Under the pieces are notes generated by a model, which saw only the letters and a list, made by a program, of their open reading frames with translations, did no database searches and was not told the origin of the DNA. From positions 399,797 to 463,796 of the forward strand of contig CAZMIU010000001.1 of NCBI GenBank assembly GCA_964566795.1: a stretch of DNA of 64,000 nt, given 5' to 3'. The position numbers were made by a program, and so were the translations under genes. Source of the stretch: an uncultured Candidatus Saccharibacteria bacterium (GTDB lineage: Bacteria > Patescibacteriota > Minisyncoccia > Phycocordibacterales > SBAW01). This document shows, piece by piece, positions 580-51,240 of the stretch (positions are counted from its first letter, which is position 1; each line of letters starts with the position of its first letter).

Positions 580-1821
580 CTACAAAGCACTTGCGGTGTT
601 GTAAATAGGCAGGAGCACGGCAGCCAGGAGGAAGCCCACACCAAGCGCCAGCGCCACAATGAGCGCCGGCTCGATAAGAGACACGAGCGTGTCCACGGCG
701 GCATTAACCTCGCGGTTGTAGAACTTGGCCAGGCGCTCCAAGAGTGTACCCATCTCGCCCGTCTCCTCGCCAATCTGGATCATCTGTGCAAATATCGCCG
801 GTATGTCGCCCGGGCTGTGGCGCGCCATCGCCTGCGAGAGCGGCGAGCCGCCCTTAACCGCTTCTATAGACTCGTGGAGTATCGCCTCGTACACATCGTT
901 CTCCACCACCTCGGCCGTAATCTCAAGCGCACGCACCACCGCAATGCCGGAGGTGAGCATCACGTTCATGTTGTCGGCGATACGTGCCAAAAAGAGCTTT
1001 TGGTAGAGCGTACCCACATATGGCAGGGAGAGCTGCAGGCGCGAGAGTGCCATGTGCCCGGTCGGTGTCTGCACGTAGCGCCAGACAAAGTAGCCTCCCA
1101 CAATAAGCGCCACGAGCAAAAAGATCCCGTAGTCAACCAAAAAGGTGCTAAACCCGAGGATAATCTGGGTGTACAAGGGCAGCTCTTGGCCCGACTCGCT
1201 TAAAATGCCGCCGATTTTTGGAATGACGACCGTAAGCATCAGGACCATCACGCCCACAAAGGTAACCATGATAAACGCCGGGTAGATAAGCGCGTTGCGC
1301 GCCTTGGCGGTGAGCTCGTACGAGCGGTCGATGTAGTCGGCCAAAAAGAGGAATGTCTGGTCGAGCTTCCCCGACTCCTCGCCGGCCTTAACCATGTTTA
1401 CATAAAAGCTCGAGAACACCTTGGGGTGCTTGGACAGCGACTTGGAGATTGAGTTGCCGCCCTGCAGGTCATCGCTAATCTCTGCCAAGACACGCCGCAA
1501 GTAGGGCTTGTCTGCCTGCTCGGCCAGGAGCCTGAAGATGCGCAGTGCAGATACCTGCGCCTCAAACAGAGTCGCAATCTGGCGCGAGAGCAGTACCAGG
1601 GTGCGTGATGACACGCCGTCAAAAAACGACACCTTGCCCAGCGACTCGATAAGGCCCTTTTGCTCATCGCCCACTATAGAGGTGATAGTGATCCCTTTGC
1701 GCTGGATAAGGTCAATAGCCGAGTCTTGTGTATTGGCATTTACCGAGCCCGCCTGGGGCTTGCCGTTCTGGTCGAGTCCTTCGTACTTAAACTCCATACG
1801 TATATATAGTGTACCCCGCAA
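580..1821 (-). CDS. pilC: Type IV pilus assembly inner-membrane platform protein PilC (GspF family)
   Basis: 413 aa with two T2SS-F-like repeats and three TM segments. It is adjacent to the pilin, pilT and pilB. Confidence 0.9.
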   Translation of the reverse strand: MRGTLYIRMEFKYEGLDQNGKPQAGSVNANTQDSAIDLIQRKGITITSIVGDEQKGLIESLGKVSFFDGVSSRTLVLLSRQIATLFEAQVSALRIFRLLAEQADKPYLRRVLAEISDDLQGGNSISKSLSKHPKVFSSFYVNMVKAGEESGKLDQTFLFLADYIDRSYELTAKARNALIYPAFIMVTFVGVMVLMLTVVIPKIGGILSESGQELPLYTQIILGFSTFLVDYGIFLLVALIVGGYFVWRYVQTPTGHMALSRLQLSLPYVGTLYQKLFLARIADNMNVMLTSGIAVVRALEITAEVVENDVYEAILHESIEAVKGGSPLSQAMARHSPGDIPAIFAQMIQIGEETGEMGTLLERLAKFYNREVNAAVDTLVSLIEPALIVALALGVGFLLAAVLLPIYNTASAL

Positions 1822-1849
1822 TCTAGGGGTCCTATAGTTAAATCCCCAA

Positions 1850-1870
1850 TGCAGAAGGGCACCTTCTGCA
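1850..1870. repeat. REP palindrome copy 1
   Basis: tgcagaagggcaccttctgca; a 9-bp stem with a 3-nt loop. Confidence 0.7.
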
Positions 1871-1881
1871 GAACATTCCGT

Positions 1882-2526
1882 TTAGTCGAGTAGAAGTTCC
1901 TCCAACTCCTTTTTGCCCTTTATAACCTCAAAGGTTTCCTCAACGTATTCACGATATGCGGCAGGATTTTGAAATTGTTCTAGTACTACCTCCCTCTCGC
2001 AGAAGGGCACCTTCTGCAAATCTATATAATCGAGATAGCTGCTATGGGGATATTTTGACAGGTTATCTACCAGACCAGCAGCTTGAGGATTCTGATGCAC
2101 ATATGCACTTAACCATAAAAGTTGCTCGTTTGATTCTACTCGAACTGATTTGAATTGATCTTGGAACACTGACCCTACTCGCTTATATACTTTATTGAAA
2201 TATTTAGAGTATCCACTAATCAAGCTGAGCATAAGCGCACTAACCGGCACATCGCCGTTCTGGCGTATGACAAGGTGGAAATGGTTTGGCATAAGGCAGT
2301 AGCAGACCAAAGAGAAGGAGCCCGGCGGGAAAGTTTTTCTGACATACCGCTCTTTTCCATCTGCAGTAGGTGCACTTTTGTCATCGGGAAAGAGATACTC
2401 TTTTAGGCGAGAAAGGAAGAAAGCATAGTCAGCCTGAGTACGGAAAATATCCATCTTGGCATTGCCGCGATTGAATACATGATAATACTCGCCGGGCGCA
2501 AAGGATTTATAATCCCTATTTTTCAT
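1882..2526 (-). CDS. REP-associated tyrosine transposase (IS200/Y1_Tnp-like, HUH motif LMPNHFHLV)
   Basis: Motifs YHVFNRGN, CYCLMPNHFHLVI and a later conserved Tyr. The start is taken at MKNRDYKSF (2526); the longer ORF start at 2562 only translates the upstream REP. The C-terminal part reads through the REP copy at 1999-2021. Confidence 0.7.
   Translation of the reverse strand: MKNRDYKSFAPGEYYHVFNRGNAKMDIFRTQADYAFFLSRLKEYLFPDDKSAPTADGKERYVRKTFPPGSFSLVCYCLMPNHFHLVIRQNGDVPVSALMLSLISGYSKYFNKVYKRVGSVFQDQFKSVRVESNEQLLWLSAYVHQNPQAAGLVDNLSKYPHSSYLDYIDLQKVPFCEREVVLEQFQNPAAYREYVEETFEVIKGKKELEELLLD
1999..2021. repeat. REP palindrome copy 2 (inside the 3' end of the transposase ORF)
   Basis: cgcagaagggcaccttctgcaaa. 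Confidence 0.7.
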
Positions 2527-2539
2527 AGGGACCACTCTA

Positions 2540-2562
2540 TTGCAGAAGGTGCCCTTCTGCAA
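2540..2562. repeat. REP palindrome copy 3 (inverted orientation)
   Basis: ttgcagaaggtgcccttctgcaa. Confidence 0.7.
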
Positions 2563-2583
2563 TACCCACCAAAAATCTCCAAG

Positions 2584-2943
2584 CTATCTCTTGCTCAAAA
2601 TAAGCGGAGTCAGGAAATACGCCAACACCGGGAGCCCTGCTACCGCTGCAACACTATGGAGTCCGTCGTAGGTCAGCACGAGCCCAAGCAGCCCGAACGC
2701 CGCATATAAAATGACAAACTTGCGCGGGAGACCCTGTTTATCGTAGAGCTTCTTCCTAAACAAGTAGAGCGTCGCGCAGAACGACGCACTAAAGATTGTA
2801 AACAGGAGCAGGAGGTCAAAAACAGACCACGGCCCGGACGGGATGTTGGTGATAAGAGGAACGAGTGCAAAGACAGCCACCAAGTGGAGCATATTCTGCA
2901 CTGCTCCTATGCCTAGTAGCTTCCACAGGCTGTCCCTTTTCAC
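2584..2943 (-). CDS. Small polytopic membrane protein, hypothetical (about 4 TM)
   Basis: 119 aa, hydrophobic; its start overlaps the pilT stop (2943/2945). Confidence 0.45.
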   Translation of the reverse strand: MKRDSLWKLLGIGAVQNMLHLVAVFALVPLITNIPSGPWSVFDLLLLFTIFSASFCATLYLFRKKLYDKQGLPRKFVILYAAFGLLGLVLTYDGLHSVAAVAGLPVLAYFLTPLILSKR

Positions 2944-2944
2944 A

Positions 2945-50574: not shown

Positions 50575-51240
50575 TTACTTTGCAGCTTTAGCGGACAGCT
50601 TCTTGCTCAGCGTCTCGATAGCAGACTTGGGATCTACGATAACGAGCTGCTTTTTGCCAAGCACATGGATGGGGTTGAGGTCTGCAATAGAGCCCACCTC
50701 TACGTTGCCCATGTTGCGGAATGACTTAAGCGCATTCTGGTCGCGGGACGGGAGTGCGATGTATGCGGCATTGCTGCGCTTGTTGATAGAAAGCGACTTG
50801 AGCATGGCGGCTGCGGTCTTGGTCTTAGGTGCAGCAAGGGACACCGAGTCGATAAAGACAATCTGGCCGTCCTTGTACTTGCGCGAGAGTGCTACCAAAA
50901 GGGCCTTCTGGCGCATCGAGCGGTTAATCTTAACCGCGTAGTTCTTCTCATTGCGGGGGCCATGGGTTACACCGCCGCCCTTCCAGATAGGAGACCTGCT
51001 CGAGCCATGGCGTGCGCGGCCGGTGCCCTTCTGCTGCCAGGGCTTGCGACCGCCGCCGCGTACCTCGCCGCGGTCCTTGGTGTGGGCATTGGAGTGGCGG
51101 GCATTTGCCTGCATGGCCACAACCACCTGGTGTACCAGGTCGGCGTTCCAGGGCAGGCCAAAGATGTTCTCAGGCAGAGTAACCTTGCCTGCATCCTTGC
51201 CCTCTATGTTGTACATCTTAGTTTCCATATTGGTATTCAA
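50575..51240 (-). CDS. rplD: 50S ribosomal protein L4 (the true start may be MYNIEG at 51216)
   Basis: LVHQVVVA..GG.KPWQQKGTGRAR motifs. Confidence 0.95.
   Translation of the reverse strand: MNTNMETKMYNIEGKDAGKVTLPENIFGLPWNADLVHQVVVAMQANARHSNAHTKDRGEVRGGGRKPWQQKGTGRARHGSSRSPIWKGGGVTHGPRNEKNYAVKINRSMRQKALLVALSRKYKDGQIVFIDSVSLAAPKTKTAAAMLKSLSINKRSNAAYIALPSRDQNALKSFRNMGNVEVGSIADLNPIHVLGKKQLVIVDPKSAIETLSKKLSAKAAK

Follow-up and report, generated by a model that had tools for sequence, protein, structure and literature searches.

A RAYT-like HUH/Y1 gene with cognate hairpin repeats at the pilT-pilC junction of a Saccharibacteria genome

A stretch of 64,000 nucleotides from an uncultured Candidatus Saccharibacteria bacterium (assembly GCA_964566795.1, contig CAZMIU010000001.1, positions 399,797 to 463,796; hereafter, the window) was analyzed for a gene of the REP-associated tyrosine transposase type (RAYT; REP, repetitive extragenic palindrome), which lies among type IV pilus genes and is accompanied by copies of a short palindrome. 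In our view, the locus is probably a REPtron, i.e., a RAYT-type gene for a HUH/Y1 endonuclease/transposase acting on single-stranded DNA (ssDNA) together with copies of its cognate hairpin. Four things were observed directly, namely the sequence anatomy of the locus, the co-variation of the hairpins across the family, the spread of the hairpin through other genomes and a site that is empty in relatives. The assignment of the protein as RAYT-type with cognate flanking hairpins is supported. The protein belongs to a large family of ~215 amino acids, known so far only from Patescibacteria, in which each gene has its own hairpin at the same places. Based on homology with TnpA-REP and with the IS608 transposase, the protein would be catalytically active.

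The gene and its hairpins in the window

The ATG start of the gene (Table 1) agrees with the N-terminus of the family, and a longer call of 226 amino acids from a TTG codon only adds the translation of the upstream hairpin (MQKGTFC). The Pfam model Y1_Tnp (PF01797) is matched at residues 67-146 with 33.2 bits against a cutoff of 23. Both the HUH motif (H82-F83-H84) and the catalytic tyrosine (Y142) are invariant in alignments of 17 and 51 homologs. In the AlphaFold2 (AF2) model of the protein (pLDDT 85.7), the tyrosine is located in the helix 133-149 and belongs to the motif Y142-V-H-Q-N146-P147, of which N146 is invariant and P147 is kept in at least 90% of the aligned homologs. Further motifs are F121-Q122, two serines at 162-163 and a C-terminal helix (188-213). 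The top match of the model in the PDB, using Foldseek, is the E. coli RAYT in complex with its REP hairpin (4er8_A, E=1.7e-6), followed by the TnpA proteins of ISDra2, IS200 and IS608, with a Foldseek probability of 1.00 to 4er8, 2xo6, 2f4f and 2a6m. An earlier note, made from the letters of the sequence alone, had proposed a HUH/Y1 gene of the RAYT type, and this proposal is borne out by the domain match, the fold and the invariant residues, including an intact Y142. No second copy of the gene is present in the 64-kb window, and it is probably single-copy. Its GC content is 0.43, 14 points lower than that of the flanks (0.57). Given that the gene lies below its flanks at 61 of 61 homologous loci with at least 3 kb of flank (median -7.7 points, maximum -19.5), low GC is a family-wide property which says nothing on recency, and recent acquisition was therefore rejected as its explanation.

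The palindrome has the consensus TGCAGAAGG-NNN-CCTTCTGCA, with a perfect stem of 9 bp and a loop of 3 nt; written as a single search string, the repeat is GCAGAAGGNNNCCTTCTGC. Three perfect copies were found in the window, one on either side of the gene and one inside it (Table 1), where dinucleotide shuffles predict 0.04 matches per 64 kb and the observed count was reached in 0 of 100 shuffles. On the plus strand, the loop reads GCA in the downstream and internal copies and TGC, i.e., inverted, in the upstream copy, and the two flanking copies are 100% complementary. Folded as ssDNA, the upstream copy, whose perfect stem extends to 12 bp (2538-2564), reaches -11.4 kcal/mol (z -6.2), with -8.1 kcal/mol (z -4.8) for the internal and -8.8 kcal/mol (z -4.0) for the downstream copy. 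A fourth copy within the gene has decayed and, in the same folding test, no longer forms a hairpin. Allowing up to three mismatches, no further good copy was found in the rest of the window; the sole extra match, at position 51016, has a broken stem and is chance-like. The remark of the earlier note that no further copies were noticed elsewhere in the 64 kb is thus correct for good copies, to which the decayed one has to be added. A second recurrent hairpin family was not found in the window.

The bases flanking the copies share nothing beyond T...A, and the stem starts with GCAG. The palindrome contains no stop codon in any of the six frames, which translate as CRRAPSA, AEGHLL, QKGTFC, CRRCPSA, AEGALL and QKVPFC. 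Two other identities were considered for the hairpins and rejected, namely intrinsic terminators, since none of the copies is followed by a T-run, and a known RNA family, since no Rfam match was obtained at E<=1. Separate from the palindrome, a small hairpin of 7 bp (TCCCTAT-gaaaa-ATAGGGA, 2513-2531) encloses the start codon of the gene and might occlude translation initiation. As a family trait it was rejected, since among close homologs it is present only in the window and at the locus of the closest homolog (L019).

Of the two internal copies, the perfect one accounts for seven residues only (170-176, LQKVPFC). The family motif at this place is G-x-R-x-G-x-L-C, also found in homologs of 35-41% identity that have unrelated hairpins, and the hairpin has replaced seven codons of it with no change in length, keeping Leu170 and Cys176. 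No palindrome was found in the DNA of homologs at the 170-176 site; besides a sister strain (L128, see below), only one locus (L076) has a hairpin there. The remaining 38 C-terminal amino acids form a family-conserved helix, and homologs cover 100% of the query. Hence, a perfect copy does lie inside the gene as had been noticed, and the accompanying suggestion of a partly REP-encoded C-terminus of 40 amino acids shrinks to these seven residues. We also asked whether the family motif, in the form L-R-x-G-T-L-C, is an ancient exapted REP copy (LQKGTFC in frame 3). This was rejected, given its conservation in 35-41% identical homologs with unrelated hairpins and a match of the homolog DNA to the REP at 8-12 of 19 positions, which is the chance level. 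The decayed copy encodes K50-S-A-P-T-A55 and sits in an unstructured loop of low pLDDT in the AF2 model (amino acids 46-70). At this site, the peptide RRAPSA or RRCPSA, exactly as a perfect copy would be translated, is found in many close homologs, and perfect copies occupy the homologous place at three loci (L015, L019 and L039).

Table 1. Features of the RAYT-like locus and its neighbors (window coordinates)
Feature	Position	Strand	Basis or context
pilC (T2SSF)	580..1797	minus	Pfam T2SSF 4.6e-58; downstream neighbor
Inserted segment, 1147 bp	1798..2944	minus	absent from the pilT-pilC junction of relatives
Downstream hairpin	1850..1870		11 nt 3' of the RAYT stop; coding-strand loop TGC
RAYT-like HUH/Y1 gene, 214 aa	1882..2526	minus	Pfam Y1_Tnp, invariant residues, fold match
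Internal perfect hairpin	1999..2019		encodes L170-Q-K-V-P-F-C176
Decayed internal hairpin, 16/21 nt	2362..2382		in the open reading frame, at the family hot spot "site 1"
Upstream hairpin	2541..2561		14 nt 5' of the RAYT ATG; coding-strand loop GCA
Orphan orf119, 119 aa, predicted membrane protein	2584..2943	minus	GTG start one base after the pilT stop
pilT-like ATPase (T2SSE), 353 aa	2945..4006	minus	Pfam T2SSE 8e-43; upstream neighbor

The gene family and the spread of the hairpin

Full-length homologs of the protein number 2,843, and every one with a source name comes from Patescibacteria; many of them carry the JGI label "REP element-mobilizing transposase RayT". With regard to carriage by phages or plasmids, only matches of <=34% identity were found. 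Using the protein alignment, a metagenome scan retrieved 80 more loci of 35-54% identity, and 81 distinct loci were compared. A recurrent, locus-specific perfect hairpin, with a stem of 8-14 bp and mostly a 3-nt loop, was identified at 49 of these, and its sequence differs from locus to locus; the other 32 have no recurrent hairpin. The hairpin is located upstream of the start (by 13-50 nt) at 45 loci, downstream of the stop at 40 and at both ends at 36, and 34 loci have it inside the open reading frame (ORF), with 45 copies in total. The cognate hairpin is 41 times denser in the ORF (1.41 per kb) than in 348 kb of flanking sequence (0.034 per kb). At the two ends of the gene, perfect hairpins of any sequence reach densities of 6.7 and 6.1 per kb, versus 0.20 per kb in the flanks.

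Within the protein, the internal copies map to amino acids 48-79, 150-159 and 170-176 only (numbering of the window protein), and they cluster at residues 50-79 (28 copies, plus one at residue 48) and 150-159 (13 copies). Both clusters fall in loops of the AF2 model, the first of which is indel-rich, unstructured and of low confidence. At four loci, whole inverted doublets resembling REPINs, with arms of 15-22 bp, are found in frame in the site-1 loop (L042:2999-3040, L054, L057 and L100). The sequence and orientation of the hairpin loop vary freely among copies and close relatives, and flips between copies of other loci include ccg/cgg, tgg/cca and tca/tga. On one contig (CAIOKC010000013.1, loci L039 and L040), a stretch of 31.6 kb contains three or more divergent paralogs of the gene, of which at least two are associated with the palindrome of the window. 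Cognate copies are in strong excess within and beside the gene, they are confined to loops, and perfect and decayed ones occur together; these observations suggest repeated insertion near the site where the enzyme is synthesized. The gene for the enzyme is the most heavily hit target, which points to action in cis, and the insertions would be filtered by what the protein tolerates.

In addition, one genome per GTDB species was scanned for exact matches to a 19-mer of the palindrome. The identical 19-mer was present at 39 loci, where ~4 would be expected by chance from the size of the collection. Five of the matches are single occurrences in genomes outside the Patescibacteria, and the rest fall in at least 14 Patescibacteria assemblies, including Paceibacterota, Kaiserbacteria, Adlerbacteria, Zambryskibacteria, Spechtbacterales and one Saccharibacteria. 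For two of the outside matches, in Motilibacteraceae (L006) and Prevotella (L029), extra partial copies of a motif centered on GGGCACC/GGTGCCC were seen nearby, so these may be unrelated repeat families instead of pure chance. Among the loci, which were retrieved because they hold an exact copy, an assembly has up to ~14 copies and several have 9-14. A clear RAYT homolog lies near a copy at five loci, and two more have weak matches; most copies are far from any RAYT gene. Many copies are paired as REPIN-like inverted doublets, with 2-10 nt between the two members. The earlier note had taken the palindrome as a recent or rare element rather than a genome-wide REP family, and this is not supported at the level of the clade, considering the spread of the 19-mer; the low GC, common to the gene family, does not speak for recency either.

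Of 55 dispersed copies in other Patescibacteria genomes, 47 lie inside ORFs of at least 100 amino acids. Because some loci of high GC show spurious overlapping ORFs, ten of the host ORFs were tested with Pfam, and nine were real genes with the copy within or between domains. The nine encode AtpD (the beta subunit of ATP synthase), MiaA, PheT, LigA (twice), a NifS-like desulfurase, TsaE, trigger factor and a HhH-GPD glycosylase. The remaining ORF encodes RsmH; there, the copy lies on the N-terminal side of the domain, possibly ahead of the true start. In-frame copies or doublets were seen at L003, L004, L005, L013, L017, L021, L023, L026, L030 and L041, with peptides such as SRRAPSA...AEGALL. 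The two LigA cases come from unrelated metagenome-assembled genomes (L021:341-359 and L041:2901-2919), one palindrome being exact and the other having a single mismatch. In both, the copy coincides with a conserved segment of the adenylation domain (Y-AEGxL-xA-ATRGDG) and adds no length; here, the palindrome overprints a compatible conserved motif, as it does at residues 170-176 in the window.

By homology with E. coli TnpA-REP and with the TnpA proteins of IS608 and ISDra2, the REPtron would work as follows. The protein would recognize the hairpin extruded on ssDNA, and Tyr142, together with the metal bound by the HUH motif, would cleave beside it, after which the strands would be rejoined. 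Hairpins could thereby be copied or moved around the genome, singly or as inverted doublets. Since intergenic space is nearly absent from these genomes and the hairpin is stop-free in six frames, the copies would persist mainly as in-frame inserts in tolerant loops of proteins.

The pilT-pilC junction and competing explanations

In relatives with 88-91% identical PilC, the pilT stop is 3-14 nt from the pilC ATG (L123/L124, L125/L126 and L127). As pilT directly abuts pilC in these relatives, the 1147 bp between the two genes in the window are an insertion, and an uninterrupted junction is just what the earlier note had advised looking for. One of the empty junctions (L127) belongs to a Candidatus Adlerbacteria assembly that has the repeat on another contig (L018). 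The insert is made up of orf119, a 22-nt spacer, the hairpin-RAYT-hairpin unit and 52 nt. The placement of the gene between pilC and pilT, both confirmed by Pfam, is right, except that orf119 intervenes before pilT. No Pfam, NCBIfam or PADLOC match was obtained for orf119, and only two homologs were found among 5.8 billion protein clusters, both in the context pilT-orf119-RAYT-pilC. The element separates pilT from pilC without destroying either gene, and it might affect the expression of the pilus genes. A block of orf119 and the RAYT gene would have entered the junction in this lineage with no gene broken.

The insertion, with its arrangement, is shared by the sister strain (L128). Between the two strains, orf119 is 80% identical in nucleotides and 79% in amino acids, pilT and pilC are 93-95% identical and the 3' part of the RAYT gene ~90%. 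Thus, orf119 changes much faster than its neighbors and is still open in both strains. A block of 335 nt in the middle of the RAYT gene (2110-2445 in the window) is 100% identical, and this mosaic pattern suggests a recent recombination or transfer of the core of the gene. In L128 (846-868), the loop of the upstream hairpin is flipped from GCA to TGC, which leaves all copies of that strain in direct orientation; the stem remains intact, and an indel of 10 nt lies immediately upstream. Therefore the inverted 21-nt bracket described for the window, where the flanking loops do read GCA and TGC, is not a fixed property of the element.

The closest relative (L122, PilC 95% identical) has a different insertion of 2.7 kb at the same junction (L122:2325-5000), with two ORFs without family match (221 and 182 amino acids) and a stand-alone reverse transcriptase of 313 amino acids (Pfam RVT_1; PADLOC RT, 158 bits). 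The junction has thus received insertions recurrently and, in this lineage, apparently acts as a hot spot for them.

Several points weigh against reading the locus as a REPtron. The NCBIfam equivalog model REP_Tyr_transpos (NF047646) is matched with 53 bits, below its cutoff of 80, so the alignment with the RAYT family envisaged in the earlier note succeeds for the Y---NP motif and the fold (4er8) and fails at this threshold. Similarity in sequence to the E. coli RAYT of 4er8 is marginal (profile E=0.088), and phmmer found no direct match among the solved structures; for this reason, the link to these structures rests on Pfam and the fold. The guide tetranucleotide of classical REPs, GT[AG]G (also CGTC), was not found at the foot of the hairpin. 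The other 61 kb of the window hold no dispersed copy, which is uninformative because other genomes hold only about one copy per 50-100 kb. The insertion overshoots the hairpins by 384 bp on one side and 52 bp on the other, i.e., it is not bounded by them, so that hairpin-directed transposition of the gene itself is at most putative. Finally, the perfect copy inside the gene takes the place of a conserved protein motif, which might impair this particular protein.

A more far-reaching interpretation, which we consider doubtful, is that of a distinct RAYT lineage of the Patescibacteria with intragenic repeats, whose hairpins have been shaped to be stop-free so as to survive in essential genes. 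The ORF of the enzyme itself would then be kept as a landing pad or "master copy" site, and its internal hairpins would be functional and kept perfect by repeated conversion, which may include the loop flips between sister strains. They could in that case be autoregulatory operators or source copies for dissemination.

The hairpins could also be kept by selection as regulatory elements, either self-repression operators or structures that affect mRNA stability or attenuate translation in the pilus operon, and we find this quite improbable. Homologs of 35-40% identity do have hairpins of differing sequence at the same positions (5' of the start, 3' of the stop and two loop sites), many internal copies are perfect, stems are conserved where loops vary or flip, and the window and the closest homolog have the second small hairpin over the start codon. 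Selection of this kind is, however, difficult to reconcile with the site-1 copy of the window, decayed to 16 of 21 nt and no longer folding, or with a family in which internal copies occur at only 34 of 81 loci and 32 of 81 lack a recurrent hairpin. Moreover, the internal copies come as singlets or doublets at shifting loop positions, as in repeated insertion, the same hairpin is found in many unrelated housekeeping genes, and neither a terminator-like tail nor an Rfam match accompanies it.

An autonomous insertion sequence (IS) of the IS200 type, with TnpA only (~712 bp) and subterminal hairpins, which a recent transposition of the whole unit would have placed in the pilT-pilC spacer, is more improbable still. 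The unit from hairpin to hairpin (1850-2561, 712 bp) fits the size of IS200 and has subterminal hairpins at both ends, it is missing from the junction of relatives, its GC is 14 points under that of the flanks, and the TnpA proteins of IS200, IS608 and ISDra2 are significant fold matches. The lower GC is, however, common to the whole family (61 of 61 loci), a RAYT and not IS200 gives the best fold match, and the window has no second copy of the gene. The protein, with 214 amino acids and a C-terminal tail, exceeds the core-only form of ~150 amino acids. Further reasons why such an element is unlikely are the Y---NP motif (class 2, RAYT-like) in place of the Y---Q of IS200 (PMC6006769), the ends of the insertion, which are not the hairpins (the 1147 bp also take in an unrelated orphan ORF at one end and 52 nt at the other), and the spread of the hairpin without the gene in other genomes.

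That the palindromes are a matter of chance or a by-product of coding constraint, unrelated to the protein, can be dismissed, since three perfect sites face an expectation of 0.04, two of the three are non-coding and flanking and internal copies co-vary at 49 loci, even if the hairpin coincides with compatible conserved motifs in LigA (L021 and L041) and at residues 170-176 in the window.

Significance and comparison with known systems

To our knowledge, work on REP/RAYT systems has been confined almost entirely to Proteobacteria, with some surveys reaching Cyanobacteria and Bacteroidetes. In the literature searched, no publication linking REP/RAYT to the Candidate Phyla Radiation was found. 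The locus and its ~2,800 homologs indicate that the reduced and gene-dense genomes of Patescibacteria carry a RAYT-like family with cognate hairpins and that, in the genomes sharing the hairpin of the window, the dispersed copies lie mostly inside genes. This would make them a compact natural system for the co-evolution of a hairpin-specific ssDNA enzyme and its repeats, as well as for a possible cis preference of the enzyme and the tolerance of essential proteins to in-frame insertion of repeats. The practical implication for the window is modest; its element is, in our reading, an ordinary REPtron.

Among the closest known systems is the TnpA-REP/RAYT (YafM) REPtron of E. coli (PDB 4ER8), which shares the HUH/Y1 fold, being the best structural match, the Y---NP motif and the arrangement of a single gene between cognate hairpins. 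These hairpins also occur dispersed, often as inverted pairs, and the hairpin of the window does so in other Patescibacteria genomes. The Y---NP motif is the signature of class 2 (TnpA-REP), whereas Y---Q is that of IS200 (Quentin et al. 2018, PMC6006769). In contrast to the E. coli protein, to which its sequence similarity is marginal, the protein of the window has ~50 extra C-terminal residues; its hairpin, a perfect palindrome of 9 bp around a loop of 3 nt, lacks the GTAG guide tetranucleotide, and the dispersed copies are counted in tens instead of hundreds and lie for the most part inside genes.

In-frame copies within the gene have a precedent in subclass 2.4 of TnpA-Y1 (Cyanobacteria/Bacteroidetes; group 4 of Bertels), in which REPs are inserted in frame in the peripheral variable region of tnpA-REP and also flank the gene (PMC6006769). 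The two internal copies of the window, one perfect and one decayed, resemble these. However, the REPs of subclass 2.4 are long or have a "double foot" with GT[AG]G (PMC6006769), which is absent from the present family, the W-motif is FQ and not WQ, and the copies of Patescibacteria lie before the HuH motif (amino acids 48-79) and after the tyrosine (amino acids 150-176). The motif set NHFH / FQ / YVHQNP / SS is nearer to subclasses 2.1 or 2.6 (PMC6006769). IS200, the TnpA-only member of the IS200/IS605 group, is likewise a unit of ~0.7 kb with a Y1 gene between subterminal hairpins, and its transposase has the same fold. It is, however, multi-copy and near-identical within genomes, whereas the present hairpins disperse without the gene and the insertion is not bounded by them.

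Intragenic REPs and the Rickettsia palindromic elements are short, often dimeric, and found as in-frame inserts of housekeeping genes (Di Nocera et al. 2013, PMC3733652), where they add ~7-30 residues in tolerant regions (PMC3733652). In that survey, most REPs are intergenic and the intragenic ones are a minority (PMC3733652), whereas 47 of the 55 copies sampled in the present analysis fall within long ORFs and a cognate RAYT-like gene can be identified. As both in-frame REPs in RAYT genes and intragenic REPs have already been published for other phyla, the features of this family are not categorically new; the family is set apart by its phylum, its motif set, the missing GTAG foot, the sites of insertion and the predominance of intragenic copies.

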